A stretch of 64,000 bases of DNA, from IMG/VR virus record IMGVR_UViG_3300000203_000003, positions 77,979-141,978 of that record; one strand, given 5' to 3'. This document shows positions 17,001-56,547 of the stretch, piece after piece. The position numbers and the translations under genes were made by a program. Each line of letters begins with the position of its first letter. Position 1 is the first letter of the stretch. Under the pieces are notes generated by a model. That model made no database searches. It saw nothing but the letters and a program-made list of their open reading frames with translations, and had not been told where the DNA came from. Origin of the DNA: a virus (Duplodnaviria; Caudoviricetes).

Positions 17001-20000
17001 TACTGGTAATATTCAAGCAGAAAGATTAATTGCTAACAACACACTGAACGTAACTGGTAATGCTAATGTCGGTAATCTGGGAACTGCCGGACTACTTGTA
17101 GCAACAGGCAACGTCTCCGGTGGAAATCTTACAACTGCTGGAATGTTAACAGTTACTGGTAACGCAAACGTAGGCAACATAGGTTCTAATATATTTACCG
17201 GTAACTCATTGACTATATCAGGTAACGCAAACGTTGCTAACCTAGGAGCATCGGGTCTTATCATATCCACAGGCAATGTGTCCGGTGGCAACATAACGAC
17301 AGCCGGCAATGTAGTAGCCACTGCGAACATAACAGGTGGCAATCTAATAACAGGCGGAGTTCTATCGGTCACCGGCAACGCAAATGTTGGAAACATAGGC
17401 ACCCTAGGGTTGATCGTGGCCACAGGCAATATCAGCGCCGGCAACTTTATAACATCCGGCTCTATGTCAGTCACCGGAAATGCCAACGTTGGTAATCTAG
17501 GAACAGTTGGATTGGTAGTCGGCACCGGCAACATTACATCGAACGCAAACGTCATAACAAATAGTATTCTTGGCAGAACATCAGGTGTTACTATCACCGC
17601 AGTTGGTTCAGATCAAAATATATCTCTGGTGCCAACTGGCAACGGCACAGTTGATGTGGGTGGAAAACGCATATCATCATTGAATGACCCGTTTAATGCG
17701 ACTGACGCGGCGACCAAAGCATATGTTGATGCAACTACTTCATCATTGAAGGTTCTGGCGTCTGTTGTTGCTGCAACCACTGTAACTCTTACTGCGACCT
17801 ATAACAACGGTGCCAGTGGATTTGGTGCTACTCTTACTGCAACAACAAACGTAGTTCTGCCGACAATAGACGGATACACTGGGTTAGTTGTTACTAATCG
17901 TGTACTTGTTAAAAATCAAGCGGATCCTATTCAAAACGGTATATATGTTGTCTCAAGTCTCGGTGTAGTAGGAGTTTCTCCTTGGATACTAACCAGAGCG
18001 ACAGACTTTGATGGTGTGCCACCCAGCGAAATAACTTCAGGTGCATTCACGTTCATTACATACGGGGTACAAGGGTCAACTGGTTGGGTAGAATCTGCTA
18101 CTGGCGGTGGTCCTGGTGGCGCGATCAGACCGGGTATAGATGCTATTTCATTCACACAGTTCTCTGGTGCAGGTACATATGCAGCAGGTACTGGATTACA
18201 ACTTGACGGAACGATATTCAGCATCAGCAGCACAACAGTAACGGCAGCTTCATACGGAGGTTCTACCGCAATACCATCATTCACTGTTAATCAGCAAGGT
18301 CAACTCACTGCTGCATCAACTTCTGCGGTGATAGCTCCGGCAGGAACGTTATCCGGTGCCACACTGAACGCAACGGTAGTAACATCAAGTCTGACAAGCG
18401 TAGGAACACTCGGTAATCTAACTGTATCCGGTAATATAGGTGCAGGCAACGTAAATGCTCCGACATTCGGTCCGCATAATGGTGCAGTAGGAACGCTTAC
18501 TGCTAATACAGGTAACTTCACATCTGTTACTGCATCGCTGACAGTTGCCGCAACCGGTAATGTATCGGGCGCAAATCTTACAACTACTGGTGTATTGTCA
18601 GTAACAGGCAATGCGAACGTTGGTAACATCGGCGCACTGAATGTAATCGGCACTACAGGTAACTTCACAACAGTTAATACTGGAACGCTGAACGCCAGCA
18701 CAGTAGTAAATGTCACAGCGACTACGGAATCTACCAGCTTAATAACAGGTTCTATTAAGACAGCAGGTGGTATGGCAATTGCCGGTAACGTAGTCATCGG
18801 AAACGAATTATATGTCGGCACCGGCGCAGCAGCAACAACATTCACTAATCCTGTTATAATCGCCAGCGATACTGGTTCAGATTTTATTCAGTTAGCATTG
18901 GTAAACACAGCCGATACTGGATCAGCAGACGTATTAGTATACGGTGATAATGGTACAAACGATCAGGGTTGGAGCGATCTGGGCTTCACTGGTAGCAACT
19001 TCACTGACCCTTTATACACGATAACAGGAACAAACGACGGATATGTATTTGCTCAAGGCGATACAGCGAATGTAAAGGGCGGCAATTTAGTCTTTGCAAC
19101 AGGACAGTTCGGCTCTACGAAAGACTTGATCTGGGCAACAGGTGGATTCTTGGTTGCTAACGAGAAGATGCGCTTCATTCATGCAACCGGTCAGTTCTAT
19201 GTTAAAACATCAACCGTGTCAACAAGCACTTCGACCGGTGCATTGCGTGTTGCAGGCGGCGTTGGTATCGGTGGAAATGCTTATATAGGTGGAAATGCAA
19301 ATGTCACAGGAAACATAAGTGCAGGTAACGTAAGTGCAACTACATTCACTGGCGCATTATCCGGCGCAGCAACCACAGCAGGTACTGTCACCACAGCAGC
19401 ACAACCGAATATTACATCAGTTGGCACATTATCTTCTCTGTTGATAACCGGCAATGCTAATGCAGCAAACTTCAACGGAACGTTCTACGGAGCAGCAACT
19501 GGTCTGACCGCTATAGTGGGCGCGAATGTCACTGGTACTGTTGCTAATGCAACTTACGCGATTTCAGCAGGCAGTGCTACTACCGCAGGCACAGTAACAA
19601 CAAATGCTCAACCTAACATTACAAGCACAGGTACATTGACTACATTGACCGTTACGGGTAATATCGGTGCAGGTAACGTTAACTCTAACTTCTTTGGTTC
19701 AGGTACCGGTCTTACTTCAGTAGCCGGAGCGAATGTAACCGGTACAGTTGCCAATGCAACATACGCAGTCAGTGCAGGATCAGCTACTACAGCGGGTTCA
19801 GCTACTACAGCGGGTTCAGCTACTACAGCGGGCTCAGCTACTACAGCGGGCACAGTCACAACTGCTGCTCAACCTAACATTACAAGCACCGGCACTCTTG
19901 CTGCGCTTATCGTAACAGGTAATGTCACAGTTGGTAATCTTGTCACAGCGGGTTCTGGAGGCAACATAACCGGTGCTAATGTAATAACTTCGACAACAAT

Positions 20001-38173: not shown

Positions 38174-40591
38174 ATGAAAACAATCGTCGTAATGCCAGGA
38201 GGCTTTCATCCGTTTCACGCAGGACATTATGCTCTGTATAAATCAGCAGTGGAGGCCTTTCCCGGCGCTGATGTGTATGTCGCTGCAACAAACGATCAAA
38301 AAGCACGACCTTTCCCGTTTGCGATTAAAGAGAAACTTGCTAAGATAGCCGGCGTTGCTCCAGGACATTTCGTTCAGGTGTCAAGTCCATTCAAAGCAGC
38401 AGAGATAACTCAGCACTACAACCCTGATCAGGATGTGCTGATCTTCGTCCGTTCAGAGAAGGACCGAAACGAACAACCTAAGCCCGGTGGCATGAAGAAG
38501 GACGGCACCCCATCTTACTTTCAGCCATATACAGGAAAAGGTATGCAGCCGTTCAGTAAACACGCTTACTTCGCCTATCTGCCTACGGTAGAGTTTGGTC
38601 CTGGCATCACCGGCGCAACAGAGATTCGCAATGCCTGGCCGACATTGAATCCTACTCGCAAGACAGCAATGGTTATGAGCCTGTATCCAGCAACGAAACA
38701 GAATCCTCAGCTGGCTGCGAATGTAGTCAAGATGATGGATCTTGGCATGGGCGGCCAGCCCGAAGTGGATGAGAGTAAAGAGGAGGCACTTCAGTATGCT
38801 ACTCAGGCTCATGCCGGACAAACGAGAGCAGGTGGTGCTCCTTATATTTCACATCCGATAAGTGTAGCAGATTCAATCAAGCAATACAAGAAATCACACA
38901 ACCTCGATGCGTTAATCAGTGCTGCACTATTACATGATACCGTAGAAGATACTGACACCACTCATGAAGCCCTACACGATTTATTCGGTGGTTTAGTTGC
39001 CTCACTAGTTCAAGAACTAACTAGCGACAAAGAGAAGATTCAACAAATGGGCAAAGCTGATTATCTGGCACAGAAAATGGCTGCTATGAGCAGTTATGCT
39101 CTGGTGATAAAACTTGCCGATCGACTCGACAATGTTCAAGATATTGCTACTGCTAAAACTCCAGAGTGGAGGGCGAAGTATAGGGCAGAAACTGAAAAGA
39201 TTTTAGACTATATTGAAAAGCATCGCGCCTTATCAGGAACGCACCAGAAGTTAATAGAACTTATCCGTAACAAGTTAGGCGAGATTGATAGTCATCAAGG
39301 TGTAACAGAAGACACCTCATCCTCAAGTCTTCCGGATGTTCTGTATCACGGTGGTGAACACCAGATAAGCAAGTTCAGAATTCCACCCTACGGTGTATTT
39401 TTCAGTCCCCATAAAGAATGGGCAGAGGAATACGGTGACGCGCTAACTACCGCAAAAGTCAACGCCACGAAAGTGTATGTCGCCGATTCTGATAACTGGA
39501 ACGATCCAAACTCGTTTGACGCTAAAGTGCTTGACGCACTGTTTGACCGTGACTATAAAACTTTGGCAGTATGTGTCAAAGTATTACAGGCTCGAGGCTA
39601 TCAGGCACTTCAAACGCAGACTGACAGCGAAATGGTTGTGGTGTTCCCGGGAACTGAGATTCAAGTATTACCGCCGGATGAAGGAGTTGAGTTAAAATTC
39701 AACTCAAATTCACTCAACGAAAGTCAAATCTATTCGTATTTTAAGAAGAAATATTCTCTCTACGAAAGTGAAAAATTCCCACAGAGAATGGTATCAAGTA
39801 TTAAAAAGATAAATGAAACAGACAACCATAATGAAATTAAACAATTTATCCATCGGGTTGAAACCTTTGACTATCCTGGTCGGATCAAAGTAGGAGATTC
39901 CTTGGCAGTTTTAGATTTTGAGATAAACTTCGCCTGGAAAGAAATTGAAGGTCGTGGATTTACACAGGCAAAAAGAATAACAAAAATATCGGCTGATAGC
40001 GCCGGAATAAATTATATAGAATTTGAAGACGGTGACCGATATCCTAGACTTGCAAAAGCAACGTTCGGAGATAAACAACGACCCATGGAATTTGCCGCGT
40101 ATTTTAAAAAATCAAATGATGCGGAACACGCCATTACGGTATTAGGGTTGATCGTGCCCGATACATGGGAATACAATACCAGTGAAATTCAACGTGGCAA
40201 CACTTCTGAAGTTGACGAACAATTCACCACTAATCTGACAACCGAGGGTGACCTAAATGAACTCCATTCGGACACCTTACATAGTTATGCAGGAAAGGCA
40301 TGTGACCGTAATACCAAGAGTATTAGGCAAGCAGATTGGAAACGAACTACCCCGGATGAGAGAGAGAAGATTCACCAAAAAGTTCTAAGAAGATGTGACG
40401 GTATAGGAAGGGCTTTGGACAAGGATCATGCCAAGCAGGAGAATGAACTGTTGAAGAATATTCCACCTCATTTACGCAAAAAATTAAGGCTTCCTGAACC
40501 ATATGTTGATGAAGGCTCGGACATCCAGTTGTCCAAACCAATCAAACCTTTCAATCAGGTTAAACAATATCCTCTGACCGCCCTGCTATAG
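38174..40591 (+). CDS. Multidomain protein: HIGH-family cytidylyltransferase-like + SpoT/Mesh1-type HD hydrolase + ART-like + unknown domains
   Basis: PGGFHPFHAGH; AH.GQ.R..G.PYI.HP..ALLHDTVEDT..KLADRLDN; VLYHG..GVFFS..A..YG; linkers VDES, QGVTED, LNES, INET, VDEG. Confidence 0.75.
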   Translation: MKTIVVMPGGFHPFHAGHYALYKSAVEAFPGADVYVAATNDQKARPFPFAIKEKLAKIAGVAPGHFVQVSSPFKAAEITQHYNPDQDVLIFVRSEKDRNEQPKPGGMKKDGTPSYFQPYTGKGMQPFSKHAYFAYLPTVEFGPGITGATEIRNAWPTLNPTRKTAMVMSLYPATKQNPQLAANVVKMMDLGMGGQPEVDESKEEALQYATQAHAGQTRAGGAPYISHPISVADSIKQYKKSHNLDALISAALLHDTVEDTDTTHEALHDLFGGLVASLVQELTSDKEKIQQMGKADYLAQKMAAMSSYALVIKLADRLDNVQDIATAKTPEWRAKYRAETEKILDYIEKHRALSGTHQKLIELIRNKLGEIDSHQGVTEDTSSSSLPDVLYHGGEHQISKFRIPPYGVFFSPHKEWAEEYGDALTTAKVNATKVYVADSDNWNDPNSFDAKVLDALFDRDYKTLAVCVKVLQARGYQALQTQTDSEMVVVFPGTEIQVLPPDEGVELKFNSNSLNESQIYSYFKKKYSLYESEKFPQRMVSSIKKINETDNHNEIKQFIHRVETFDYPGRIKVGDSLAVLDFEINFAWKEIEGRGFTQAKRITKISADSAGINYIEFEDGDRYPRLAKATFGDKQRPMEFAAYFKKSNDAEHAITVLGLIVPDTWEYNTSEIQRGNTSEVDEQFTTNLTTEGDLNELHSDTLHSYAGKACDRNTKSIRQADWKRTTPDEREKIHQKVLRRCDGIGRALDKDHAKQENELLKNIPPHLRKKLRLPEPYVDEGSDIQLSKPIKPFNQVKQYPLTALL

Positions 40592-41600: not shown

Positions 41601-42266
41601 ATGATTGCTTATTCTAAACTAAATCCACCAACTGGCTTCTATGTATATATGTGGCTTCGGGAAGACCAGAGTCCATATTATGTAGGAAAAGGTATGACTC
41701 GCAGAGCTTGGCGATCAGGATCTCCAATTGATCAAACCCGCATTGTTATAGTTGAGCATATGCTCACTGAGGAGGAAGCGTTTAGTAAGGAACGACAACT
41801 CATTAAAGAGTACGGTCGTAAAGACCTCGGAACAGGCATATTAAGAAATATGACTGATGGCGGAGAAGGAGCATCAGGGCAGGTACAGACAATTGATACT
41901 ATTGAAAAGCGACATAAAACACGCAAAGAAAATGGAAATTGGGGCAACGCATCACTGATAGGTAGTAAACAAGCGGCGGAAGAAATATCCAGAAAAAGCG
42001 AAAGACAACGCGGTCAAAAACATTCTCCTGAGCGTAATGCGAAGCGCAGTGCAGCATTGAAGGGTAGAAAGTTATCCCCTGAACATATAGCCAAGCGAAC
42101 TGCTACGGTAACTGGCAGAAAACAACGACCTGAAGTTATTGAAAACCGATCAGCGCAACTAAGAGGGCGAAAGCAAGAGGTGATAACTTGTCCACATTGT
42201 GGCAAATCCGGCGGGTGCGTAGTTATGAAGAGGCACCACTTTGACCATTGTAAATCTATCCGATAA
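41601..42266 (+). CDS. Free-standing GIY-YIG-like endonuclease with NUMOD3 repeats and CPHC finger
   Basis: FYVYMWLR..PYYVGKG, ILRNMTDGGEG, G.K.SPE repeats, CPHCGK..HHFDHC. Confidence 0.85.
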   Translation: MIAYSKLNPPTGFYVYMWLREDQSPYYVGKGMTRRAWRSGSPIDQTRIVIVEHMLTEEEAFSKERQLIKEYGRKDLGTGILRNMTDGGEGASGQVQTIDTIEKRHKTRKENGNWGNASLIGSKQAAEEISRKSERQRGQKHSPERNAKRSAALKGRKLSPEHIAKRTATVTGRKQRPEVIENRSAQLRGRKQEVITCPHCGKSGGCVVMKRHHFDHCKSIR

Positions 42267-43533: not shown

Positions 43534-43607
43534 ATAGTAGTGTAGTTCGCGGAAGTGGAATTCCCAACTACTCTAATGCCCAAGGAGCAATCAGCATGAC
43601 TATTTAT
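43530..43607 (+). promoter_or_regulatory. Conserved structured endonuclease leader, copy B
   Basis: ATAAATAGTAGT-GTAGTT-CGC-GGAA-GTGGAA-TTCC-C-AACTAC-TCTAAT-GCCCAAGGAGC-AATCAGC-ATG-ACTATTTAT. Confidence 0.85.
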
Positions 43608-44267
43608 TATCTTATGGTTAAGACCCATAATATTACCGGTTTAAAATATCTTTGTCAGACAAAACGCAAAGACCCACACAAATATCTCGGATCCGGTAAA
43701 GATTGGTTGATCCATCTCATGCGTCACGGAAAAGAACATTCAACTGAAATTATTATTGCCTGTCAGAGCAGACAGGAACTGTACTATTGGGGAATGTATT
43801 ATAGTAGCCTATGGAGGGTAGTAACCGGCCAGGATGATTTCGGCAATAAAATATGGGCTAACCGGATTAAAGAAAACGGCGGGGGCGAAGGTATGACTTC
43901 GGCGCTAGCCACTGAAATTCAAAATAGGCCGGCTACAAAACTTAAAAATTCAGATTCCCACAAAATGTTATGGAAAAATAAAGAATATATTAAAAAGCAA
44001 ATAGATGCCCACCAATCCATAGATTATCGCACTCGGAATAGCGTACTTCAAAAAGAAGTACAAAATAGACCCGAAGTTAAAGAAAAGTTGAGTGGCAAAA
44101 ATAGTTACAAATACGATCATACAATTTACACCTTCATCCACACTACAGGGATTATAGAAACGTTAACTCAATACGACCTAATTAGGAAATATGATCTATG
44201 TCAGCCAAATTTAAATTCAGTTGTCCGTAATAAAAGACGAATACACAAAGGCTGGACGATAGCATAA
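43596..44267 (+). CDS. Free-standing GIY-YIG-like endonuclease (MTIYY family)
   Basis: First ~33 aa nearly identical to the 28124 protein; divergent C-terminus ending HKGW. Confidence 0.8.
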   Translation: MTIYYLMVKTHNITGLKYLCQTKRKDPHKYLGSGKDWLIHLMRHGKEHSTEIIIACQSRQELYYWGMYYSSLWRVVTGQDDFGNKIWANRIKENGGGEGMTSALATEIQNRPATKLKNSDSHKMLWKNKEYIKKQIDAHQSIDYRTRNSVLQKEVQNRPEVKEKLSGKNSYKYDHTIYTFIHTTGIIETLTQYDLIRKYDLCQPNLNSVVRNKRRIHKGWTIA

Positions 44268-44344
44268 CCATAATCCGCCCTTGCTTCGAAAATAAACTCT
44301 CTTTAAACCAATTTTGATAAATAGTATATAAGTGGAAATATACT

Positions 44345-46447
44345 ATGCAAATCAAACACCTCGAAGAATGTTCAACAACTGCAGGCGCTGTAGCAACATT
44401 CGCTCAACCATTTGAAACCGTTCAAAAGCGCACTCCGGAGAAGAAACTTAAAGGTAGCAATCTACTCAAAGGTATCAAAACTTCAGCGAAGTATGCTAAC
44501 AGCCTACACGAAGGCGAGGGTTTCCCGCATGATGTAGATCACATGCCCGGTCAAACTATCAAACACCAGAATACAAACTGCACTGCTTGTCATGGTCGCA
44601 AGGTGCAGTATAAACTCGGTGGCAAACTATACCCAGACAATAAGAAAGGTGCCACTAAAGTTATATGCCCAACTTGCAACGGTACCGGTGATAAGGAGCA
44701 TACCGACACAGAAGATGGCCGCAATTATGCTAATGCGTTTGGTACATACCAGTATGAGTCAGTCGAAGAAGGCGCCAAGGTAGATCGCATGGTCGGTCAT
44801 GTCAAATCAAGCGAGAAGAAACTTGGCAAGTCCTCGAAAGAAGCAGAAAATATCGCCTGGGCAACCGCCAACAAGCGTGGTATGCTTGATAACAAGAATA
44901 AGAAGGTGGCGGAAGGCTTCTCTAATGATATGTCTACAGAAGATATGATTGCGTATCTAAGACAGCACCACGATGAGAATCTACACCCCGATTATCTAAA
45001 TCATCTTACTAATACGAACAGCAAGTTTGTGCTAAAAAATATCCCACTAAATTCCATCAGAACTGAATTGTCAGGATTAGATAGAACAAAAGTAGAGCAA
45101 TACAAAAAGATGGACTTTAGCAAGGCTCCCCCTATAGTAGTTGGTAGTGATGGTAATATATTAGATGGCTATCACAGAGCCAATGTAGCAAAAGCATTAG
45201 GGATCTCTACTATTAAAGCCTATGTTGGCATTAAAGGTCAGCAAGGTGTGGCGGAAGCAGACGATAAAAAAGAATGGCAAAAACAAAATGCTAAACCAAA
45301 ACAGTTAGGAAAAACTGAAAAGTATTTCTCTACGAGACATACTACTAAAGATACTGGCGCAGCCGACAAAGAGCAAGGTGTGGCGGAAGGCTCCATATCT
45401 GATTTGTTGAACAAGGATCCTACATCTCCAAAATTTAACGACCATTCAGCACCACGCAAAACAAAACATTCTGGTAGCACCCCGACCCCATATGAGCAAG
45501 GCAGATTAGATGCCCACAGAAAAAAGTCATATAACAATATCCACAACAGCGAACAGGATGCAGAAGATTATAAAACTGGATATAGACACGTTAAATCTAG
45601 GCAAGGTGTGGCGGAAGCAAATACACTACCAGCAGGACAGGCTGTTGCAGCACAACCTCAAGCAGGTAAGAAGTCTGGCCCGATAAACATGGTGGGCCCT
45701 GATAAGAACAAGCACGTAGATGTTAGTGCTAATCCTTCTGTGGCACAATCTAATGACCCGGAATTAAGACGCAAATCTGAGTGGGCGCAGCGACACTACG
45801 GTGCTACTCTAAGCCCTGATGAAGCCATGAACAAGTGGATGCAGCGAGGACTAGACATTACTGAAAAGAACGATAAGCGCCACGACGCAGAGATTGCCAA
45901 ACTGATGAAAGAAATAGCCGGCCTTAAACGTATCATTAATAACCTGCACCCGGCGGCAACCGGAGCATCTAACGTTGCTGAAGGTGAAATCACAGAAGAT
46001 GATGTAGTTCTATCTGCTGACCGTCGTCGCCCTAAATCAGGACTGCTATCTAAACCAGAGCAGGCGATGAACCCCGCTGATGTGGTGAAGCTTGACGTTC
46101 CATTGCTGATCAGACTGCTTGAGTTTGCCAAGGAAGATGCGGCTGACGATATGGCTCTACATGATCTTGCTGAAAAGCTAGTAGCAGGTTGCCAACGTGG
46201 CAGAACTCTGACAATGAAAGACTATGATAGTCTTGTCCCTTCAACACCAGAAGCACCTGGCCCAGATGAACAGGAGGACTTCGAAGGCAAGTTCAATCAA
46301 GAGATGGATGAAATCAGTGATCCCGCAGTAAAGAGTTATCTTGGCAAAGCAATGACTGATACACTCACAGGTAAGAAAGATCGTAATTCTGGTATGAAAC
46401 GTGCGATTAGCAGGTTAGCTGGGACAAATAAACCACTGACTAAATAA
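44345..46447 (+). CDS. Modular polyprotein: CxxC Zn module, ParB/Srx-like module and small modules separated by (QG)VAE linkers
   Basis: CTACHG..CPTCNG; PPIVV..ILDGYHR; linkers LHEG, VEEG, VAEG, QGVAE x3, NVAEG, ITED, MDEI. Confidence 0.7.
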   Translation: MQIKHLEECSTTAGAVATFAQPFETVQKRTPEKKLKGSNLLKGIKTSAKYANSLHEGEGFPHDVDHMPGQTIKHQNTNCTACHGRKVQYKLGGKLYPDNKKGATKVICPTCNGTGDKEHTDTEDGRNYANAFGTYQYESVEEGAKVDRMVGHVKSSEKKLGKSSKEAENIAWATANKRGMLDNKNKKVAEGFSNDMSTEDMIAYLRQHHDENLHPDYLNHLTNTNSKFVLKNIPLNSIRTELSGLDRTKVEQYKKMDFSKAPPIVVGSDGNILDGYHRANVAKALGISTIKAYVGIKGQQGVAEADDKKEWQKQNAKPKQLGKTEKYFSTRHTTKDTGAADKEQGVAEGSISDLLNKDPTSPKFNDHSAPRKTKHSGSTPTPYEQGRLDAHRKKSYNNIHNSEQDAEDYKTGYRHVKSRQGVAEANTLPAGQAVAAQPQAGKKSGPINMVGPDKNKHVDVSANPSVAQSNDPELRRKSEWAQRHYGATLSPDEAMNKWMQRGLDITEKNDKRHDAEIAKLMKEIAGLKRIINNLHPAATGASNVAEGEITEDDVVLSADRRRPKSGLLSKPEQAMNPADVVKLDVPLLIRLLEFAKEDAADDMALHDLAEKLVAGCQRGRTLTMKDYDSLVPSTPEAPGPDEQEDFEGKFNQEMDEISDPAVKSYLGKAMTDTLTGKKDRNSGMKRAISRLAGTNKPLTK
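44906..45617 (+). repeat. Dispersed in-frame direct repeats GCAAGGTGTGGCGGAAG (QGVAE)
   Basis: Exact 17-mers at 45241, 45373 and 45601; 10-nt core GTGGCGGAAG also at 44906; spacings 342/132/228 nt. Confidence 0.9.
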
Positions 46448-46451
46448 TCGT

Positions 46452-48275
46452 ATGAGAGCATTAGAGTTTTTAAACGAAATAGCAATGAATCCGAACTCCC
46501 TGAGAAGGGACGCCGAGAAGATCAACGCCATGGCAGGCATGGAGTTTGAGATGTATGTCCCGAACGCAGGTGGGCCAGACAATGACTACGAATCTGTGCC
46601 TGACTATAGTATGGATGAGCAGGCCAATGATATAGACTATATCATCCGCTTCTTTAACGGCGGCGATGGCTACAATGATCGTAGAGATTTAGCAATGCTG
46701 CGTGACGAACTTGAAGATGCTTACTCTGAATGGGGCATGGAGCAACAATCTGAACAGTGGCACCAAGAAGGTAAAGAACTGCTGAAAACATACATGGAAG
46801 AAAATGATTGGGACGCCGACGAAGCAATCGATCAAGCAATGAATGATCTTGGATTCACCGCAGAAGAAAAAGACGAAGCCAAAGACGGTGGAGACTCTGC
46901 AAAAGGCATACAGACAAGTAAAGAGTTACCTGATACGCCGGCGTATCATAACTGGGTCCGAGCCGTTACCGTTGCTGAAGAAGCATTTGATGAAAAAGTA
47001 GAAGAAGAATGGGACTCTCAAGGCAGGTTATATGACAAGGCCCGTGAAGAATGGGAAAATGATTGGGAATGTCCTGATCAACGTGACTTCCTACGTGATA
47101 ACAACCTCCGTCGCATGAGTGATGTGGAAAATAACTACACTATTACATGGCCGTATCGCACCGCGCCTGAAGCCGGTGAGCTTGACATGGATTCAGTCGG
47201 TGAGATGTTCAGCAAAGCAATGGGTAAGAAAGTCATAACCGGTGGATATCATCGTGCCGGTCGTTCTCCAACTGCATACTCACTTGAACCGGACGGAAGT
47301 CTTGACTCACCGAATGAACCTGAAGATGGTGGTCTGGAATTCATCAGTCCGCCGATGTCTATCCCTGATATCATCGCTGATCTGAAGAAAGTTAAAGCAT
47401 GGGCAGATGAGACCGGTTGCTACACAAACGAATCAACCGGTCTTCACATCAATGTCAGCGTGCCTCAAGGTGCCGACAGAGACTATGTTAAACTTGCTCT
47501 GTTGCTCGGAGATGATTACATACTTGAACAATTCGGGCGTGAAGCAAACACATTCTGTAAGTCAGCACTGGCCAAAGTAAAGCAATACGCAATGACACGT
47601 GATGCAGATGCCAAAGCAGTTCTGGAAAAGATGCGTTCAGGTCTTGACAAGTTTGCGTCAAAAGCAATTCACAGTGGCAACACAGACAAATACATCAGCA
47701 TCAACAACAAAGGTGACTACATTGAGTTCAGATCGCCCGGCGGCGATTGGTTAGATGATAACTTCGACAAGATTGAAAATACGTTGTTGAGAACTGTAGT
47801 TGCGCTTGACGCCGCAAGTGATCCACAGAAGTATCGCAAAGAATATCTGAAGAAGCTGTACAAGATCCTGGCCCCAAAGGGTGAAGGCGATCCGATTGGT
47901 ATCTTCGCCAAGTATGTCGCCGGTGATATGCCAGCAGCCGCCCTAAAAAGCTTCATCAAGCAGGTACAGCTACAAAGAAATATTAAGAAACAGGGCCCCG
48001 AAGTAGCAGCGCCGGCTGCTAGCATCAGAACACGCTCCGGTTATCTGACTCCTAATCAAGATTGGGAACCTGAAACAACTCAACCCGGCACTACGCCTGG
48101 TATGGTCCCGTGGGCGCTTGTTAATCGTAATACCGGTGAACACATTGGCGAACCATTTATGGCGCCACCGGGCGCCGTAAACGCCGGCGCATATGACCGA
48201 GCGATTGAGATAGTAAATCAAATGGGACTAACACCGGAGCAACGACGGGAACTCATCGTTCAACCGGCAGACTAA
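46452..48275 (+). CDS. Putative amidoligase (COOH-NH2 ligase type 2)
   Basis: GMEFE, EPDGSL, GLEFISP, STGLHINV, KY..IN, IEFRSPG; N-term MRALEFLNE. Confidence 0.8.
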   Translation: MRALEFLNEIAMNPNSLRRDAEKINAMAGMEFEMYVPNAGGPDNDYESVPDYSMDEQANDIDYIIRFFNGGDGYNDRRDLAMLRDELEDAYSEWGMEQQSEQWHQEGKELLKTYMEENDWDADEAIDQAMNDLGFTAEEKDEAKDGGDSAKGIQTSKELPDTPAYHNWVRAVTVAEEAFDEKVEEEWDSQGRLYDKAREEWENDWECPDQRDFLRDNNLRRMSDVENNYTITWPYRTAPEAGELDMDSVGEMFSKAMGKKVITGGYHRAGRSPTAYSLEPDGSLDSPNEPEDGGLEFISPPMSIPDIIADLKKVKAWADETGCYTNESTGLHINVSVPQGADRDYVKLALLLGDDYILEQFGREANTFCKSALAKVKQYAMTRDADAKAVLEKMRSGLDKFASKAIHSGNTDKYISINNKGDYIEFRSPGGDWLDDNFDKIENTLLRTVVALDAASDPQKYRKEYLKKLYKILAPKGEGDPIGIFAKYVAGDMPAAALKSFIKQVQLQRNIKKQGPEVAAPAASIRTRSGYLTPNQDWEPETTQPGTTPGMVPWALVNRNTGEHIGEPFMAPPGAVNAGAYDRAIEIVNQMGLTPEQRRELIVQPAD

Positions 48276-48276
48276 T

Positions 48277-48663
48277 ATGAGAGCCACAGAGTTTCTATCC
48301 GAGAGTCAGCAAACAACGCTGAATGATTTATACGACAGTGATCTTCCGGGGCGCGATGAATCTCTATGGGATGAGATAGGAACAATGGATCTTGACACGC
48401 CGTTGATGATTCATACGATGCCCCGATACAAAATAGAAATCATGTTGCTTGGTCAATACCGGGTCGAGCACCTTGATGAAATTGTTGACATGATGGCCCC
48501 GGATCAGAAAGAAATTCTTGAACGCTACATGAATGATCCAACATTAGCTGACAAAGTTATTGTGATATCTGAGCATAGGATCATCGACGGCAATCATCGT
48601 GCGTTGGCAGCAGCATATAAAGGCACTTCGATTAAATACATTGATCTATCAGAACTACAATGA
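48277..48663 (+). CDS. ParB/Sulfiredoxin-like nuclease-fold protein
   Basis: IIDGNHRALAA; N-term MRATEFLSE. Confidence 0.7.
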   Translation: MRATEFLSESQQTTLNDLYDSDLPGRDESLWDEIGTMDLDTPLMIHTMPRYKIEIMLLGQYRVEHLDEIVDMMAPDQKEILERYMNDPTLADKVIVISEHRIIDGNHRALAAAYKGTSIKYIDLSELQ

Positions 48664-50225
48664 GAGCCCATATATTTCTATACGAAACAATAGATCCTAC
48701 AAGAGAGGATCTGGTCAGCGTGGCTCAATGGCTACACGCCGAACCTGATCAGATTGAAGTTCATATCAAGCATGAACCTATTGACAAGTTCCTGGGTCAG
48801 ATCAAAGAGATGCACGGAACCTTCAATGAGTTTCCCAAAGACGAACGGCGAACAAACAAGATTCTTCGTCTGTTGAAACAAGGTGCCACTCCGATGCCAA
48901 TGTATGTGGAGCAGGGCGATCCTGATCTATTCGTCATGGAAGGTCGCCATCGTATGGTTGCGTTCTGGCTCGCCGGAATGAAGACAGTTCCCGTGGCGTA
49001 TGCGTCAAAGAAGTTAGACGAAACAATAAATCCTGATATTCTTAATAAAAAATTCAATCATACTCAAGAGATTGGTGATTATACTTACAAAGCGTCAGTT
49101 GAGATATTTATGGATGAACCATTGTTGAACATTAAAGCATATGATGGTAATAAAGAAATAGGTCAAATATTGTTTCAAATATTTGACTGGGAAGATGATA
49201 CGAACGATGGATACATGGAAAGTGGCGGCACTGAAGTTGATCCAAAATATAGAAATAAAGGTGTAGCATCCACTATGTATGCGTATGCGAAGATGTTGGG
49301 CAATGATATAAGACCTAGTTTTCAACGAACTACAGCGGGTAGAGGAATGTGGGACGCATGGCAAAAGTCAGGTGATGATAAACATCTCGTCGCTGAGGAT
49401 TCCTATAGTCCGCCAACACTACACACCGGTGACAAAATTTTGAAGGGAAAATTTAAGAACAGTCCTGCTGAGATTAAAGGCTTCGGTAAGGACAAACATA
49501 ACCAGCCAACCTTGCGGACAAATAAAGGTGACATACAGTTGTTCAAGCCTCGAGTGGTTAAACTTATGCCGGATAAATTAGATGAATACGAGCGTGATAC
49601 TCCCAACAGCAGACAAATCTTCTCCAAGTTAGAAGGGCTCGGATACAAGAAGTTAGGTCACGGTGCTGACGCCACAGTGTGGGCGAAGGATGATAATCAT
49701 GTCATCAAGATTCTGATGCCCAGACGCACTTTGCCAAGTGATGTCACCAATGCTGAAAAAGGCTTTATGACCTTTTATGAATTCTGTAAAAAGCATCCGG
49801 AGTTACCTAATCTGCCGCGATTTATTGATATTGGTGGGCAAGGAACTACTGTGTTTGAAATTAACGGGACGCCGTATAGACAAATCGCAATGGAACGACT
49901 GTTGCCGATTCCAGACAAAAGCTTTGAGCAACGCATAGTGTGGTTGCTGAGTGATCTAGCAAAGATCAGAGCGCCCTGGAGCAATGTAGTCAGCATGTTG
50001 AAGAAGCCGGGTACTTGGCCTCCTAGTTGGCAGGAGATGCCTCAGTTGATTGCTGAGAGATTCGCTGACCCGGTAGTCAGCAAACAATTCGGAATATTAT
50101 ATTTGACAATGTCCAGGTTGTATCATGCTGGACTCAAATCTGGACTCGGTTGGGACCTTCATACCGAGAATGCAATGATGCGGCGAGACGGCACCATTGT
50201 TATCGTTGATCCGTATTTTACCTGA
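48660..50225 (+). CDS. Polyprotein: ParB/Srx + GNAT acetyltransferase + small beta domain + protein-kinase-like domain
   Basis: EGRHRM; VDPKYRNKGVASTMY..T.AG..MW; LGHGADATVW..VIKI..ERL..DLHTENAM..IVDP; linkers LYE-T, LDE-T, VAE-D, LDE-Y. Confidence 0.78.
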   Translation: MRAHIFLYETIDPTREDLVSVAQWLHAEPDQIEVHIKHEPIDKFLGQIKEMHGTFNEFPKDERRTNKILRLLKQGATPMPMYVEQGDPDLFVMEGRHRMVAFWLAGMKTVPVAYASKKLDETINPDILNKKFNHTQEIGDYTYKASVEIFMDEPLLNIKAYDGNKEIGQILFQIFDWEDDTNDGYMESGGTEVDPKYRNKGVASTMYAYAKMLGNDIRPSFQRTTAGRGMWDAWQKSGDDKHLVAEDSYSPPTLHTGDKILKGKFKNSPAEIKGFGKDKHNQPTLRTNKGDIQLFKPRVVKLMPDKLDEYERDTPNSRQIFSKLEGLGYKKLGHGADATVWAKDDNHVIKILMPRRTLPSDVTNAEKGFMTFYEFCKKHPELPNLPRFIDIGGQGTTVFEINGTPYRQIAMERLLPIPDKSFEQRIVWLLSDLAKIRAPWSNVVSMLKKPGTWPPSWQEMPQLIAERFADPVVSKQFGILYLTMSRLYHAGLKSGLGWDLHTENAMMRRDGTIVIVDPYFT

Positions 50226-50318
50226 ACACACCTTAGGACCGCAACTTAGTTGCGTGTGTGGGGTCGTCGCTCACCCTAATAACAATGGAGTCGTGCCCGG
50301 GTTTATTTAAAGAGCGAC
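50226..50318 (+). ncRNA. Candidate structured intergenic RNA with pseudoknot
   Basis: ACACA/TGTGT enclosing CGCAAC-TTA-GTTGCG; GGGT/ACCC stem whose loop GTCGCTC complements GAGCGAC at 50312. Confidence 0.45.
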
Positions 50319-50346
50319 ACTTTATTCTCCCTAGCATAAATACACT

Positions 50347-50922
50347 ATGCGCGCCAATCAATTTATCACAGAATCAGCTTTAAATGACCTAGAGCGTCAA
50401 CTACCAAGCCACCTTACTCACGGTCACAGTGCCCTTGACAATCTTATGCACAAAATTGCCCGTAGACATAATCTTACAGACGATGCACTACATGATATGT
50501 TCAAACGAAAGCACCTTAAGTCGCCACATGATCTGATCAAAGACAAACTACACGAAGAAGGTGATGATAATTCAGACGAACAAACCAGAGACTTCATCAA
50601 GTGGGCTATAGAAGTGCTGCATATTCAACAACCATATCCCAAGATCACTCTAAGCAAAGACTCAGACGCAGCCAGAGAAGGTCACCACACTGGATTGAAC
50701 ACTCCTGCTGCCAACACGATCTGGATTTATGTCGGGAACAGAAACCTTATTGACATTCTCCGTACTGTTTTCCACGAACTCACCCATACCAGACAATATC
50801 AGATGGGCATGGTCAAAGACGGCGACAGTTATCCCGGCAGCCCCATCGAAGTACTGGCTGATGCCATGGCCGGAAAGTATATCAAGATATACGGCAAGGA
50901 ACATCCGGAGATATTCCAATGA
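50347..50922 (+). CDS. Zincin-like metallopeptidase-domain protein
   Basis: ILRTVFHELTH..Q..E..A (HExxH); N-term MRANQFITE; internal LHEE linker. Confidence 0.7.
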   Translation: MRANQFITESALNDLERQLPSHLTHGHSALDNLMHKIARRHNLTDDALHDMFKRKHLKSPHDLIKDKLHEEGDDNSDEQTRDFIKWAIEVLHIQQPYPKITLSKDSDAAREGHHTGLNTPAANTIWIYVGNRNLIDILRTVFHELTHTRQYQMGMVKDGDSYPGSPIEVLADAMAGKYIKIYGKEHPEIFQ

Positions 50923-51770
50923 GAGCAAATGAATTTATCAATGAGGGGATTGAACGACTACGACCTGACGATTACGAAGGTGGTAAGGGCTATTTAGGTG
51001 GCACAGACTCCGGCAAGAAAGTATCTGCCTTACCAGGTGGCAGCGGTCTTTTGTACAGTATAGGGAGTGGTAACTGGGGAAGCACCGCTATTAGAATTTG
51101 GGATCCGAACGGAGAAGACTTTATTCAGGCTAAACGAAGAGGTGCAGAATCAAAGCCAGTTATTCAACGCCGTCGATTCCATGGTAGAGTACGCGACTGG
51201 GAACGAGAACAACAAAAACTAAAAGCACCGGGTCAATTAATCGGTGAACTTACTGTGGATAAGGCAAAATCTTTTCCCCTGAAGAATGCTGTTAAAGTTG
51301 GAACAATCACAGTTGACGAGGACTATCGTGGCATAGGTCTGGCCAAAGCATTATACGGCATTGTGCTGACTATATTGAAGTTACCATTACTAGCCGGGAC
51401 AAGTCAAACACCTGGCGGCCGCAAGAACTGGGTTAGCATATCAGGAATCCCGGGCGTGGATATGAAAGGGTATGTGTCTGTCCATGATGATAATTTAACT
51501 ACCATAAAAATAGATCCCTACGCCCGGAGAGGCGATAAACAGTATGATGAAAAACGTAATAAAAAGGCTGATCAGACGATTGACATCATCATGGGACAAT
51601 TAGGCGGACAGTATATTGGTAAGGGCGGGTATGGTTCCTTATACTTTGCATTTGATGTGCAGCCCAATGACACCGGGAAAGAATTAGAAGCCGCTGTAAA
51701 AACTAAGTTAAGCACTGTATATAGTGGTGAATATAACTCCGGACTATACGCCGTCTGGACAGGAAAATGA
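50919..51770 (+). CDS. GNAT acetyltransferase-like protein
   Basis: VDEDYRGIGLAKALY..QTPGGRKNW; N-term MRANEFINE. Confidence 0.75.
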   Translation: MRANEFINEGIERLRPDDYEGGKGYLGGTDSGKKVSALPGGSGLLYSIGSGNWGSTAIRIWDPNGEDFIQAKRRGAESKPVIQRRRFHGRVRDWEREQQKLKAPGQLIGELTVDKAKSFPLKNAVKVGTITVDEDYRGIGLAKALYGIVLTILKLPLLAGTSQTPGGRKNWVSISGIPGVDMKGYVSVHDDNLTTIKIDPYARRGDKQYDEKRNKKADQTIDIIMGQLGGQYIGKGGYGSLYFAFDVQPNDTGKELEAAVKTKLSTVYSGEYNSGLYAVWTGK

Positions 51771-51846: not shown

Positions 51847-52494
51847 TTATCTCAGCATTCCAGGTGCAAACCCCTCGGGGCAATCAAAGGTTAAAATAGA
51901 AACTTCCCCGTTATTAAACCAGTGTTTACCAAATGACGGATTATTAGCCCCGGTCATATTTATTCCATGCTCAACTCGCTTCTTTCCTGTATGGGCGGCA
52001 GCTACCTTAGCATTACGATCTGTAGAATATGTATATCCCTTTCTACTTTTGCTAATAGCCGCTCTGCGTTCCAAGGAATGTGGTCCCCTCTTTACACCCT
52101 TCAATGCCCGACTTTGTTTAAGACGCGCCTCTGATGATGGAATGGAGCCGAGGCGTTTTTCTCTGATCTTATCCTTAGTGTCTTGGGAATGTTTAAAACC
52201 AGAAATTCCCTCACCGCCCGCTGTTTTATTGCGAAGTATACCGGTGTTTTCATTTTTGCGACCGTACCAACGAATATAAAATCTTTCTAAAGCAAGCGCG
52301 CCGACCTCTGATAAGTTGGCCTCTAAAATAATTATTCTGGAATGATCTTTGGGTGTTCTGAATACTTCCGTTTTTGCGTGTTTCCATGCTCGCTTGTCCT
52401 GTCCCTTACCAATGTAATACGGGGTGTTATCATCACGCAAATATGCGTATGTATAAAATCCATCGGGTGGATTTTTGTATGAATAAATAGTCAT
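51847..52494 (-). CDS. Free-standing GIY-YIG-like endonuclease with NUMOD3
   Basis: FYTYAYLR..PYYIGKG, ILRNKTAGGEG, GFKHSQDTK, GKHWFNNG. Confidence 0.85.
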   Translation of the reverse strand: MTIYSYKNPPDGFYTYAYLRDDNTPYYIGKGQDKRAWKHAKTEVFRTPKDHSRIIILEANLSEVGALALERFYIRWYGRKNENTGILRNKTAGGEGISGFKHSQDTKDKIREKRLGSIPSSEARLKQSRALKGVKRGPHSLERRAAISKSRKGYTYSTDRNAKVAAAHTGKKRVEHGINMTGANNPSFGKHWFNNGEVSILTFDCPEGFAPGMLR

Positions 52495-52623: not shown

Positions 52624-52881
52624 ATGGATACAATTTTTAGTGGCGACCAAAAATTAAAGTTAAACGCGCTCTTTAACGAGTGTCTTCCGGTCATGACCGA
52701 AATCGAAACTCTCAGCGGGGGATTAACTGATACTATCAAAGCAGTAGGTGAGGAGTTAGAAATCAAACCCAGTATATTAAAACGGGCAATGAAAATCGCT
52801 CATAAAGCCTCACTTGGTCAGACTAATGTTGACCATGACGCGCTAAATACCGTACTGGAAGCAGTCGGGAAAACTCTCTAA
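52624..52881 (+). CDS. Small helical dsDNA-binding protein (T4 DsbA/GapR-like)
   Basis: EIE.L...L.DTIK....EL.I.P..L.RA.K pattern; start ATG 52624 with SD AAGGA. Confidence 0.5.
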   Translation: MDTIFSGDQKLKLNALFNECLPVMTEIETLSGGLTDTIKAVGEELEIKPSILKRAMKIAHKASLGQTNVDHDALNTVLEAVGKTL

Positions 52882-54572
52882 TGTCATTTGTTGACGCAAT
52901 CCACAATAAAGACTCTGAGCAGATCGTTGTTGTAGAACGGGACAAGGACGGTAAGCGTCAGTATAAAGAGTATCAGGCAAACTATACATTTTACTACGCG
53001 GATCCCAAAGGCAAGTATCGCGGGCTGAGTGCGGGCACCGCACTCCCGGTCAGTCGATTCTCCTGCCGAAAGCGAACAGAGTTTGAAAAAGAACGACGAA
53101 TAAACTCCGGCAAGAAAATGTTTGAGAGTGATATTGGCGTTGTGGGCAGATGCCTTAGTGAGAACTATCGCAACATTGATGCTCCCAAACTTCACACTTG
53201 CTTCTTCGACATTGAAACTGACTTCGATCCTGACAAAGGCTTCTCCCCTGCATCAGAAGCGATGAACAAGATCACTGCTATCTCAATGTATCTTGACTGG
53301 CTTGATCGTCTTGTCACTCTTGTCATTGCTCCTAAGCACATGACGCCGGAGACAGCACAAGAAATCTGCGATTCGTTCGAGGACACCATGCTGTTCACCA
53401 GTGAGAAGGACATGTTCGATGTGTTCTTTCAGTTGATTGACGATGCCGATGTGTTAACTGGTTGGAACTCTGAAGGATACGACATACCCTACATGGTTAA
53501 TCGTGTCACCCGAGTTATGAGCAAGAACGACACACGAAAGTTCTGTTTACTAGGTCAGCTACCTAAGGCTCGCACATACGAACGCTTCGGCAAAGAAGAA
53601 ACAACTTACGACTTGATCGGTCGTATTCATCTTGACTATCTTCAACTCTACAAAAAGTACAACTACGAGAGTCGCCACAGCTACAAACTAGATGCTATTG
53701 GCGAGTTAGAAGTTCACGAAAACAAGACTTCATACGAGGGTACTCTGGATCAGTTGTATAACAAAGACTTCAAAAAGTTCATTGAATACAACAGACAAGA
53801 TACGAAGTTGGTATATAAGATCCATGCTAAAGTTCACTTTCTTGAACTGGCAAATCAACTGGCACACGAAAACACCGTGTTGATTCCGGTTGTCATGGGT
53901 ACAGTGGCAATGGTTGAAATGGCGATCATGAACGAAGCTCATGATCATGGTCTGGTAGTTCCTGATAAAAAACGAAGGGTTGAAAATGATGATATCCAAC
54001 AACAAGCGGCAGGTGCCTATGTTGCTACTCCCAAAAAGGGAATTCACGAATGGGTCGGAGCAGTTGACATTAACTCGCTCTATCCCTCAACGATCCGGGC
54101 GCTTAACATGGCGCCAGAAACCATCATTGCTCAGGTCAGACAAACACTGACAGATCAGTTCATGCACGAAAAGGGCATGAGACTGGCACGTGAGAAGAAA
54201 CGCCACAAAGATGGCGACGATGATGTGACGGGAAGTGTCCTCTGGGAAGGTTTGTTCGGGTCGTTAGAATACACCTCGATCATGAACCAAGAACGCGGCA
54301 CTCTGCTGACGATTGACTACGAAGATGGACGCACTGAGGAGAAAAGTGCTGCTGAAATCTGGAAGATGATCTTTGACAGTCACAATCCATGGATGATCAG
54401 TGCGAACGGCACGATCTTCTCGTATGCTAATCAAGGTATCATCCCGGGACTACTTGGTAAGTGGTACAGTGATCGTAAGGCTCAACAACGGAAAATGAAA
54501 CTCTGTTCTGAACTTGCCGCGGGGATAGATGTAGACGATGAAATGGTAGCTTTACTTAATCATAGTCCGTAG
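52881..54572 (+). CDS. gp43: Family B DNA polymerase, N-terminal part (exonuclease, motif A, first fingers helix)
   Basis: FFDIET, GWNS..YD.PY, YN..D, VDINSLYPS, GIIPGLL.KWY..RK. Confidence 0.92.
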   Translation: MSFVDAIHNKDSEQIVVVERDKDGKRQYKEYQANYTFYYADPKGKYRGLSAGTALPVSRFSCRKRTEFEKERRINSGKKMFESDIGVVGRCLSENYRNIDAPKLHTCFFDIETDFDPDKGFSPASEAMNKITAISMYLDWLDRLVTLVIAPKHMTPETAQEICDSFEDTMLFTSEKDMFDVFFQLIDDADVLTGWNSEGYDIPYMVNRVTRVMSKNDTRKFCLLGQLPKARTYERFGKEETTYDLIGRIHLDYLQLYKKYNYESRHSYKLDAIGELEVHENKTSYEGTLDQLYNKDFKKFIEYNRQDTKLVYKIHAKVHFLELANQLAHENTVLIPVVMGTVAMVEMAIMNEAHDHGLVVPDKKRRVENDDIQQQAAGAYVATPKKGIHEWVGAVDINSLYPSTIRALNMAPETIIAQVRQTLTDQFMHEKGMRLAREKKRHKDGDDDVTGSVLWEGLFGSLEYTSIMNQERGTLLTIDYEDGRTEEKSAAEIWKMIFDSHNPWMISANGTIFSYANQGIIPGLLGKWYSDRKAQQRKMKLCSELAAGIDVDDEMVALLNHSP

Positions 54573-55250
54573 TTGAGAAAGGGATGACACGAAGATGAAG
54601 TTTTTTACAAGATCCCGTTTTCTGTAAATCCTTTCTAAATACCATTCTTTTCCTATACTGCTAACTTCTACATAAGTATCCAAACTTTTAATATATGCAT
54701 CCGCTGTTCTTCTATCATCAACCGAATATTCTTTTTGTAATATGATATCCGATAATCCAAACTTACCAATAAGATATTCACAGCACGTTGCCTCCAAGGT
54801 TGATGAATATTTACGGCCATCATGTTCGACTGGTTTTGACCACGTTCCTTCTCTTATTTTATGTGGGGTGCAAACCGGACAACGTTTGCGGTGTTCGTCA
54901 GTGCGTAATATTACCTCGAGGGAAGACTTTACTATATGACCACAATGGTGTTTAAAATGCAGCGGTAAATATGAGTTTTTGTATTCGTTATCGTCAACTA
55001 TTTCCCATTGACCGGGCAATAAACTCGTCTTTACCAAGTCAATCGGTTTGCGAACTCTCAACTGGAAACAATGACGACAACCTATTCCATTCAAGACTTG
55101 CCTGGGTTGCGTATTCCAAATATTGTTACAGGTATGACACATATGATTTATTTTAAAGGTGATACCATTATAAGGTTCCAACGCGGTGTAACCGAGTTTT
55201 TTTACGGCAGCAGAGTAAGTGCTTTCATTGTATTTTTTATTTAACCCCAT
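54552..55250 (-). CDS. Zn-ribbon + PD-(D/E)XK-like putative endonuclease interrupting polB
   Basis: CHTC, CRHC, HHCGH, CPVC; YSSTLE..ADAY..YVEV; SD AGGAGA. Confidence 0.7.
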   Translation of the reverse strand: MGLNKKYNESTYSAAVKKLGYTALEPYNGITFKINHMCHTCNNIWNTQPRQVLNGIGCRHCFQLRVRKPIDLVKTSLLPGQWEIVDDNEYKNSYLPLHFKHHCGHIVKSSLEVILRTDEHRKRCPVCTPHKIREGTWSKPVEHDGRKYSSTLEATCCEYLIGKFGLSDIILQKEYSVDDRRTADAYIKSLDTYVEVSSIGKEWYLERIYRKRDLVKNFIFVSSLSQLRTMIK

Positions 55251-55299: not shown

Positions 55300-56547
55300 A
55301 TGGATGTAGAACATATTAAACACTTGGTAAAAACCAGAAATGTATCGGAATTGCGACAATATATGAAGTTGCATAACCTTGTGATTAAAAATGGGAAGAT
55401 AGTCGCTTCACAGGAGAAAATAAAGGAATTTACAGATTATTGGGACAAGCGACAACTGGTCAGAAAGATTTTGTTGAACTCAGCTTACGGTGCCCTGTTG
55501 AATGAACACTGTCGTTTCTACGATAAGCGTATCGGTCAATCGGTTACTCTATCAGGCAGGCAGATTGTGAAGCACATGAGCGCACACATCAATGAAATCG
55601 TCACCGGAGAGTATGACTACACCGGGCAAGCAATCGTATACGGTGACACTGACTCTTGTTATTTCTCTGCATGGCCTCTGATGAAGGATGAAGTTGCTGC
55701 TAGCACAATGACTTGGAGCAAAGACGTTGCTATTCAGTTGTACGACAATATCGCTGATCAGATCAATGACGGGTTCGCTGGCTTTATGGAGAAGTCGTTT
55801 CATGCTCCACGCAAGAACGGCGAAATCATCAAAGCAGGTCGAGAACTGGTTGCTGATCGGTCGTTGTTTATCACTAAGAAGCGGTATGCTCTGAACATCT
55901 ACGACAAAGAAGGCAAGCGTCTGGATCAGTATGACATGGACAAGGCTAAGAAGAACGGTGTCAGATTCGGCATTGGTCAAATCAAGGCTATGGGTCTTGA
56001 TCTGAAACGCGCTGACACACCTAAGTATGTTCAAGAGTTCCTGATGCGAGTGTTGGAGATGGTCCTTGATGGTAAAGATCGTCAGGATATCATTGAGGTT
56101 ATCAAGACGTTCAAAACTGAATTGGGCAACCAAGACGGATGGACAAAGGGTTCGCCTAAGTCAGTTAACAAGCTGACGATGTATGGTGAAGCGGAAGAGA
56201 AAAGTCGAACAGGCAGGGCAAACATGCCTGGTCACGTTCGGGCTGCTATCAACTGGAACTGGCTGCGTCGAGTCCATAACGACAACTACTCAATGAAGAT
56301 CATGGATGGCATGAAGATTGTGGTATGTAAGCTGAAAAACAACCCATTGGGTTACACCAGCATTGCATACCCAGTTGATGAAATGAGATTGCCAGAATGG
56401 TTCAAAGAACTTCCGTTCGACAATCTATTAATGGAAAAGACGTTAGTTGATGAAAAGATCGACAACTTACTCGGTGTTATGAACTGGGACTTACGTTCCA
56501 ATACAGACACCAACTCTACAGTTGATTCTCTATTCACCTTCGGTTAA
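55300..56547 (+). CDS. gp43: Family B DNA polymerase, C-terminal part (motifs B and C, thumb)
   Basis: QLVRKILLNSAYG, YGDTDS, KKRY, KAMGLDLKR.DTP. Confidence 0.92.
   Translation: MDVEHIKHLVKTRNVSELRQYMKLHNLVIKNGKIVASQEKIKEFTDYWDKRQLVRKILLNSAYGALLNEHCRFYDKRIGQSVTLSGRQIVKHMSAHINEIVTGEYDYTGQAIVYGDTDSCYFSAWPLMKDEVAASTMTWSKDVAIQLYDNIADQINDGFAGFMEKSFHAPRKNGEIIKAGRELVADRSLFITKKRYALNIYDKEGKRLDQYDMDKAKKNGVRFGIGQIKAMGLDLKRADTPKYVQEFLMRVLEMVLDGKDRQDIIEVIKTFKTELGNQDGWTKGSPKSVNKLTMYGEAEEKSRTGRANMPGHVRAAINWNWLRRVHNDNYSMKIMDGMKIVVCKLKNNPLGYTSIAYPVDEMRLPEWFKELPFDNLLMEKTLVDEKIDNLLGVMNWDLRSNTDTNSTVDSLFTFG

Follow-up and report, generated by a model that had tools for sequence, protein, structure and literature searches.

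In phage T4, the internal proteins IPI, IPII, IPIII, and Alt carry a capsid-targeting sequence (CTS) that is removed by gp21 (PMC9026906, PMC3012670); the CTS is ∼10 residues long, and its residues 8 and 10 govern gp21 processing (PMC9026906). Linker-mediated shuffling is established for the intergenic PeSLs of T4-type phages and has been discussed for internal-protein loci (PMC2839356): as with Botstein's "linker" sequences, short conserved motifs flank nonessential cassettes and provide the homology by which these are inserted, deleted, or replaced without a dedicated integrase, and the authors themselves compare the system to integrons (Arbiol et al. 2010, PMC2839356). In-frame exchange within a gene, at or near short motifs, is known in T4-superfamily phages from the T-even tail-fiber adhesins, at the glycine-rich motifs of gp38 and in gp37 (Trojet et al. 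2011, PMC3157838; Tetart et al. 1998 as cited there). At the CdiA VENN and Rhs core-CT boundaries, a short peptide-coding sequence bounds variable modules, homology starts or ends there, and recombination between VENN-encoding sequences has been proposed to reload toxins (Poole et al. 2011, PMC3150448). Polyvalent proteins are multidomain proteins of late or virion context, thought to enter the host together with the DNA and to be processed into units (Iyer et al. 2017, PMC5512222), and integrons gain and lose single promoterless cassettes bounded by a repeated site. Here we analyze a polyprotein gene, P0001 (44345–46447, + strand, 700 amino acids), in 64,000 nucleotides (nt) of DNA from a virus of the Caudoviricetes (IMG/VR record IMGVR_UViG_3300000203_000003, positions 77,979–141,978; hereafter the window, whose numbering we use). 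An exact 17-nt repeat in this gene encodes a QGVAE linker, which the original prediction took to be a protease site whose codons double as the recombination joint of an integron-like in-frame array. The reading that we favor, and consider probable though not secure, is that P0001 is a head-targeted cargo polyprotein whose cut-site linker doubles as a short homology patch for cassette exchange.

The locus resembles each of these systems and departs from each. With the T4 internal proteins it shares leaders of ∼8–10 residues that end in aliphatic-x-Glu, a hypervariable locus of probable injected proteins, and the company of a Peptidase_S77 and a gp23-type capsid protein, here in relatives; unlike them, it has many cargo modules in one open reading frame (ORF), with internal predicted cut-site linkers whose DNA is fixed and marks points of exchange. 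The flanking of cassettes by short conserved motifs recalls PeSLs, but these combine an intergenic sigma70-like promoter with a terminator stem-loop and move whole genes, whereas the word at this locus is coding, in frame, and 18–20 nt long, and moves domains within a gene; among the matches listed, all 159 word sites lie inside ORFs. Where the gp38 motifs form the structural core of one folded domain, the linker stands between unrelated autonomous modules and is likely a protease site. CdiA and Rhs proteins are bacterial, with one variable C-terminal toxin, an immunity gene, and orphan arrays, in contrast to the phage-borne serial cassettes without immunity genes described here: no Cdi or Rhs domains were found, and the genes that follow are of cargo type, with leaders, rather than small immunity ORFs. 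ParB-like, ART, GNAT, NTase, and HD domains recur from polyvalent proteins, and P0001 likewise joins unrelated domains (a ParB/Srx cassette and other modules) in a phage late or virion context. Polyvalent proteins are described as processed by their own zincin-like MPTase, whereas we attribute processing to the head protease; Pfam gave no family for P0001 at E ≤ 0.01 and no MPTase or other built-in peptidase in P0001 or its pieces. A search of the text of PMC5512222 did not find the term "linker"; QGVAE occurs in no phage paper of the literature library searched, and no description of this linker was found. Membership in the integrons was considered and rejected: no IntI-type recombinase was found in the source contig or four large relatives, there are no attC-like imperfect inverted repeats, Rfam returned no match in 44000–46600, and the cassettes are in-frame protein segments, not genes.

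The repeat is fixed at the level of codons, the cassettes that it bounds are modular, and breakpoints fall at the linker. Exact matching placed the 17-mer GCAAGGTGTGGCGGAAG at 45241–45257, 45373–45389, and 45601–45617, on the + strand only, and its 10-nt core GTGGCGGAAG at 44906–44915, all as originally predicted; three matches of the 17-mer were reached in 0 of 100 dinucleotide-preserving shuffles. All four copies are in frame in P0001, reading KKVAE, QGVAE, QGVAE, and QGVAE, and splitting the protein after each VAE yields units of 190, 114, 44, 76, 122, and 154 residues. Three of these are the linker-bounded cassettes: a 114-codon unit (44915–45256, including its 3′ QGVAE), a lysine-rich 44-codon unit (ADDKKEW...DKEQGVAE, 45257–45388), and a 76-codon unit (GSISDLL...SRQGVAE, 45389–45616). 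They were said to be mutually unrelated, and they do fall into three separate similarity families. The 114-residue unit, claimed as a ParB/Srx domain, was not recognized by Pfam or by a PDB sequence profile; its predicted fold (predicted local distance difference test, pLDDT, 89.5) gave the ParB N-domain and sulfiredoxin as best fold-search matches, and the claim therefore holds. The use of other codons at other VAE sites was confirmed, with GTTGCTGAA for the NVAE at 45974 and GTCGCTGAG for the VAE at ∼49389 in the gene at 48660–50225. Outside the window, a 620-residue ORF of the source contig (G000:C1:24230-26092) has KQVAE/A and HGVAE/D (the slash marking the predicted cut, here and below), the latter encoded by the canonical 13-mer GGTGTGGCGGAAG at genome position 25814.

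A search of phage metagenomes, which had been suggested as a check, found GCAAGGTGTGGCGGAAG in at least 120 IMG/VR contigs, 30 of which have two to five copies among the matches listed. Within those matches the word is in the QGVAE frame at 159 of 159 sites, of which 153 belong to open frames 150 codons long or longer, and the flanking residues are unrelated. The 15-mer CAAGGTGTGGCGGAA encodes 190 of the 227 QGVAE sites in these ORFs, against 0.7% predicted from their own codon usage, in which GCG is the rarest Ala codon (9.8%); most loci in this count were picked for holding the 17-mer, and this ascertainment tells against our reading. Loci found by protein similarity alone (L121 and L134–L147) form an ascertainment-free sample. 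There, G-VAE is GTGGCGGAA at 16 of 17 sites, where background codon usage predicts ∼2%, and VAE without a preceding G is GTGGCGGAA at 0 of 17, so that the synonymous scrambling named as refuting the prediction is not seen. When synonymous sites of cassettes and linkers were compared strictly pair by pair, only 15 usable pairs remained, with an ascertainment bias; this protein-ascertained count and a baseline from capsid genes took the place of that comparison. As a control, two synonymous 17-mers built from preferred codons matched 36 and 9 loci, in single copy throughout. The 12-nt core occurs three to six times per large word-bearing contig, on one strand only, and the reversed control pattern does not occur. 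Conservation extends over ∼18–20 nt, with A preceding the word in 88% of cases and G (65%) and C (56%) at the first and second positions behind it; flanks outside this extent were uninformative, and the conserved word holds no inverted repeat, hairpin, or promoter. Internal translation starts at the word were tried as a candidate function and rejected, there being no start codon at workable spacing after its AGGTG. In a distant clade (L147:3-1430), QDV[ST]E/G is used at boundaries homologous to QGVAE/G; there the linker copies are less uniform, one example, AAGCAAGATGTGACCGAAG, being three bases off the canonical word.

Modularity is visible across 265 polyproteins, whose units form 651 cassette families of constant length with many neighbors. 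The ParB unit (35 homologs) has 30 upstream and 26 downstream neighbor families, the 44-residue unit (15 homologs) 12 and 9, and the 76-residue unit 9 and 7; in homologs of P0001, the 44-residue unit was found at five different positions with differing neighbors. No protein has more than nine GVAE, and the units have a median length of 76 residues. The closest homologs of P0001 have the first and last modules in common and differ in internal units, and many weaker matches align only over residues 188–304, i.e., from VAE to VAE. BLAST alignments that stop inside the proteins tend to do so near a VAE: of 275 internal ends in the query, 109 lie no more than 4 residues from one (22 expected), as do 72 of 257 in the subject (11.5 expected), five to six times the random frequency. 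One orthologous gene (L195) has the array [44][65][67][53]; immediately before a linker in this gene (L195:2893-3009) stands a run of N, which may be an assembly break at the variable array. P0002, 100% identical from residue 302 on, is possibly an alternative array. P0108, with nine GVAE linkers, has a two-cassette block present twice, the one dispersed duplication of this kind; no tandem cassette duplicates were found. Fixed module content in orthologs, another outcome named as refuting, is thus not what we see, and the same cassettes do occur in other genes.

Two loci resolve the breakpoints. At L121, a syntenic locus that matches the window at ∼94% identity where the two share sequence, a single 17-mer stands where the window has 17-mer, 76-codon cassette, and 17-mer, so that L121 represents the empty site; its ParB unit sits in another gene, at 74% identity. 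At 44906, 40 nt of identity between the window and L121 come to an end within the V-x-E codons, where L121 reads GTCGAAGAAGG. The polyprotein of L193, otherwise ∼23% identical, is encoded by a gene that contains the 76-codon cassette in a 249-nt stretch of 99.6% nt identity. This stretch begins with the first base of the upstream word and stops 4 nt after the downstream one, and the flanks on both sides are unrelated. The 61-residue cassette preceding the 76-codon cassette in L193 has an identical final 39 nt and linker (L193:5239-5294, 56 nt, 100%), and looks like a chimeric cassette or the product of a crossover within a unit.

At the protein level, the QGVAE linker is most likely the aliphatic-x-Glu cut site of a prohead protease of the T4 gp21 type, a reading to which circumstantial evidence points. 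Four of the five large word-bearing contigs encode both Peptidase_S77 and a gp23-type capsid protein. The N-terminal region of the capsid protein in these relatives has the L-x-E motifs LAE/S, LME/N, and LKE/N, which we take to be at the position of the T4 gp23 cut. P0001 begins with MQIKHLEE (44345–44368), a candidate capsid-targeting leader ending in L-E-E (MKISNLTE and MKISSLFE in orthologs), and five genes downstream on the + strand begin with MRAxEF[LI]xE-like, T4 internal-protein CTS-like leaders: MRALEFLNE (46452–48275), MRATEFLSE (48277–48663), MRAHIFLYE (48660–50225), MRANQFITE (50347–50922), and MRANEFINE (50919–51770). By sequence resemblance, a leader of ∼10 residues with an aliphatic-x-Glu end, as in T4 capsid targeting, can be read in P0001 and all five neighbors, and the whole cluster, including 46452–51770, is probably head cargo. 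P0102 and P0116 have the ParB unit right behind an MRAxEF[LI]xE leader, with the first residue of the unit unchanged, which argues that the leader cut site and VAE are interchangeable as boundaries. Among 545 GVAE sites, 91% have G, A, E, or D following the Glu. More distant relatives have VNE, IME, VRE, VQE, and VTE, in other codons, at homologous boundaries; the predicted protease would thus need only aliphatic-x-Glu, and fixation of QGVAE together with its codons is a matter for the DNA level. Homologs carry GNAT, NUDIX, NTase, and ParB domains, and a neighboring gene (38174–40591) has an HD domain and weak ART-PolyVal and cytidylyltransferase-like matches, below Pfam cutoffs.

The silent sites might instead be fixed for translation or the mRNA, for instance because the rare GCG codon and the Shine-Dalgarno-like AGGUG make ribosomes pause between modules, with shuffling due to illegitimate recombination and selection for intact modules. 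In its favor, GCG is the rarest Ala codon of these ORFs, the AGGTG within the word can base-pair with the anti-Shine-Dalgarno sequence, and selection alone would confine the breakpoints that survive to the edges of modules. Against it, signals for pausing are as a rule degenerate, whereas 84% of QGVAE sites among the matches listed have one and the same 15-mer, and the variant V-x-E and I-x-E tripeptides serve homologous boundaries with other codons. The nt identity in L193 stops at the word at either end, and the pattern of one copy in L121 against two in the window is what a crossover in the repeat predicts; the lack of an Rfam match is a further point against an RNA role. We regard this explanation as unlikely.

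It is less likely still that the word has no function in DNA, reflecting either recent common descent of linker and cassette together or chimeric assemblies joined at the short repeat. The data are, to be sure, metagenome assemblies throughout, and in the L195 scaffold the N gap abuts a linker. Common descent of recent date does not fit the carriers: cassettes at 72–81% nt identity keep canonical words, and the major capsid proteins of carriers are 77–91% identical in amino acids (differing by up to 23%), with a codon identity of 0.54–0.63 at identical residues and all codons kept in only 4–18% of identical 5-residue windows. With capsid genes so diverged in codons, fixation of the word is not mere recency. 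As for chimeras, a repeat of 17–20 nt is shorter than the k-mers that assemblers usually employ, the arrangement of L121 is found again in four assemblies, which follow two naming styles, and P0001 is present on 5 contigs.

Short-homology exchange, the reading we favor, would work as follows. P0001 would be expressed late and targeted to the head as a cargo polyprotein, in which QGVAE/G joins small modules that are unrelated to one another (a ParB/Srx-fold domain, short basic peptides); an S77/gp21-type protease would cut the linker, freeing the modules inside the head to be ejected with the DNA. In the DNA, the 18–20-nt word (nAG CAA GGT GTG GCG GAA Gnn), identical across cassettes, genes, and phages, would serve as a short patch of homology at which the general recombination of the phage, or template switching, inserts, deletes, or swaps whole cassettes, and every recombinant would be in frame and flanked by cut sites. 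The silent sites would then be fixed probably because a cassette stays mobile only as long as its words are intact. No match to the tyrosine recombinase family PF00589 was obtained in the source contig (G000), the complete G001, or G002, G004, and G005, whereas 14 of 14 control genomes matched; nor was a serine recombinase found in the source contig and these four large relatives. A RecA/UvsX homolog is present in all five. With no site-specific recombinase found and RecA/UvsX present, the pathway is likely short-homology recombination rather than that of an integron. The original prediction is supported in part: the empty and filled pair with L121, and L193, place the breakpoints at the linker, and "integron-like" stands only as an analogy, given the lack of a recombinase and of attC-like flanks.

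These negatives also bear on the proposal that a dedicated enzyme recognizes the word and actively and site-specifically mobilizes cassettes, either a nuclease such as one of the many free-standing homing endonucleases of these phages or a recombinase. The word is fixed far past what a protease site needs, including a silent G before CAA, and free-standing genes of GIY-YIG-type endonucleases lie up- and downstream of the polyprotein cluster (41601–42266, 43596–44267, and 51847–52494 on the minus strand), the first matching homing-endonuclease PHROGs and the others having N-terminal motifs only; Arbiol et al. raised a like possibility for PeSLs (PMC2839356). At the syntenic L121 locus, other genes stand in place of these endonucleases, which in the window may stimulate local recombination. 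In the five genomes surveyed, one of them complete, no tyrosine or serine recombinase was found, the word is without conserved flanks or inverted repeats, and exchanges occur also at partial or variant words and within cassettes. The partial-word junction at 44906 and the 56-nt stretch of L193 fit homology exchange or template switching better than site recognition. We accordingly doubt that a dedicated enzyme acts here, and find it similarly improbable that the word is the recognition site by which a phage enzyme moves in-frame cassettes, e.g., as mini-circles. If it were so, lytic jumbo phages would have a true site-specific "protein-domain integron" and assemble the effector polyproteins that they inject from cassettes of a common environmental pool.

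Several further observations weigh against short-homology exchange at the linker. The junction at 44906 shares just a few bases with L121; in L194 the 76-codon unit, at 97% identity, lies between variant words, and L140–L147 have cassettes with variant linkers. Compared with L121:7421-7711, the window at 45617–45660 is without a segment of ∼80 residues that precedes RPVAE/AGKKSGP in L121, and since this indel has VAE at one side only, not every rearrangement uses two linkers. A patch of 17–20 nt is short for recombination of the T4 type, for which Arbiol et al. (2010, PMC2839356), citing Singer (1982), state that only small patches of <50 bp are needed. Peptidase_S77 and capsid genes are absent from the 142-kb source contig, which is ∼41% complete, and the polyprotein gene had neither a DNA nor a protein match in the cultured-phage collection.

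The remaining parts of P0001 frame the array. Behind the leader, the N-terminal module (44369–44914), conserved in orthologs, has two CxxCxG zinc-ribbon-like motifs, with a weak DnaJ_CXXCXGXG match under the Pfam cutoff, and ends in KKVAE. The last 17-mer is followed by a 122-codon module (45617–45982) that ends in the noncanonical NVAE and by a C-terminal module (GEITEDD...PLTK, 45983–46447) common to orthologs. About 20 nt before the start codon lies GATAAATA (44317–44324, + strand), a word like a T4 late promoter by its similarity to TATAAATA, from which P0001 may be expressed late.

The source contig is a 141,978-bp fragment (CheckV completeness 41%) that encodes a 1191-residue tail sheath, a Lon-like protease, and a split DNA polymerase. 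The sheath shares ∼45% identity with its counterparts in the jumbo phages Atu_ph07 and PA5oct, and the contig is taken to come from an uncultured, T4-related jumbo phage of ∼350 kb. In the window, a 3565-residue ORF (11062–21759) without any Pfam match lies 3′ of the tail genes, and the polymerase is divided between ORFs at 52881–54572 and 55300–56547, with a minus-strand ORF of 232 residues (54552–55250) in between. In G001 (the contig of L055), linker copies at 176506 and 176887 recur at 524059 and 524440, a spacing of 347,553 bp; this 524-kb record probably represents a concatemer longer than one unit of a ∼348-kb genome.

If the favored reading is correct, the locus represents a sequence-defined mechanism of modular evolution at the level of domains, in which one short word keeps recombinants in frame and ensures release of the modules by the head protease. 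This would explain how giant phages rapidly reassort injected proteins against host defenses. The 15–17-mer is a search key for hundreds of candidate injected effectors in uncultured phages (the 651 families in 265 polyproteins found here), and it suggests a natural design for packaging multiple cargoes in T4-type capsids.

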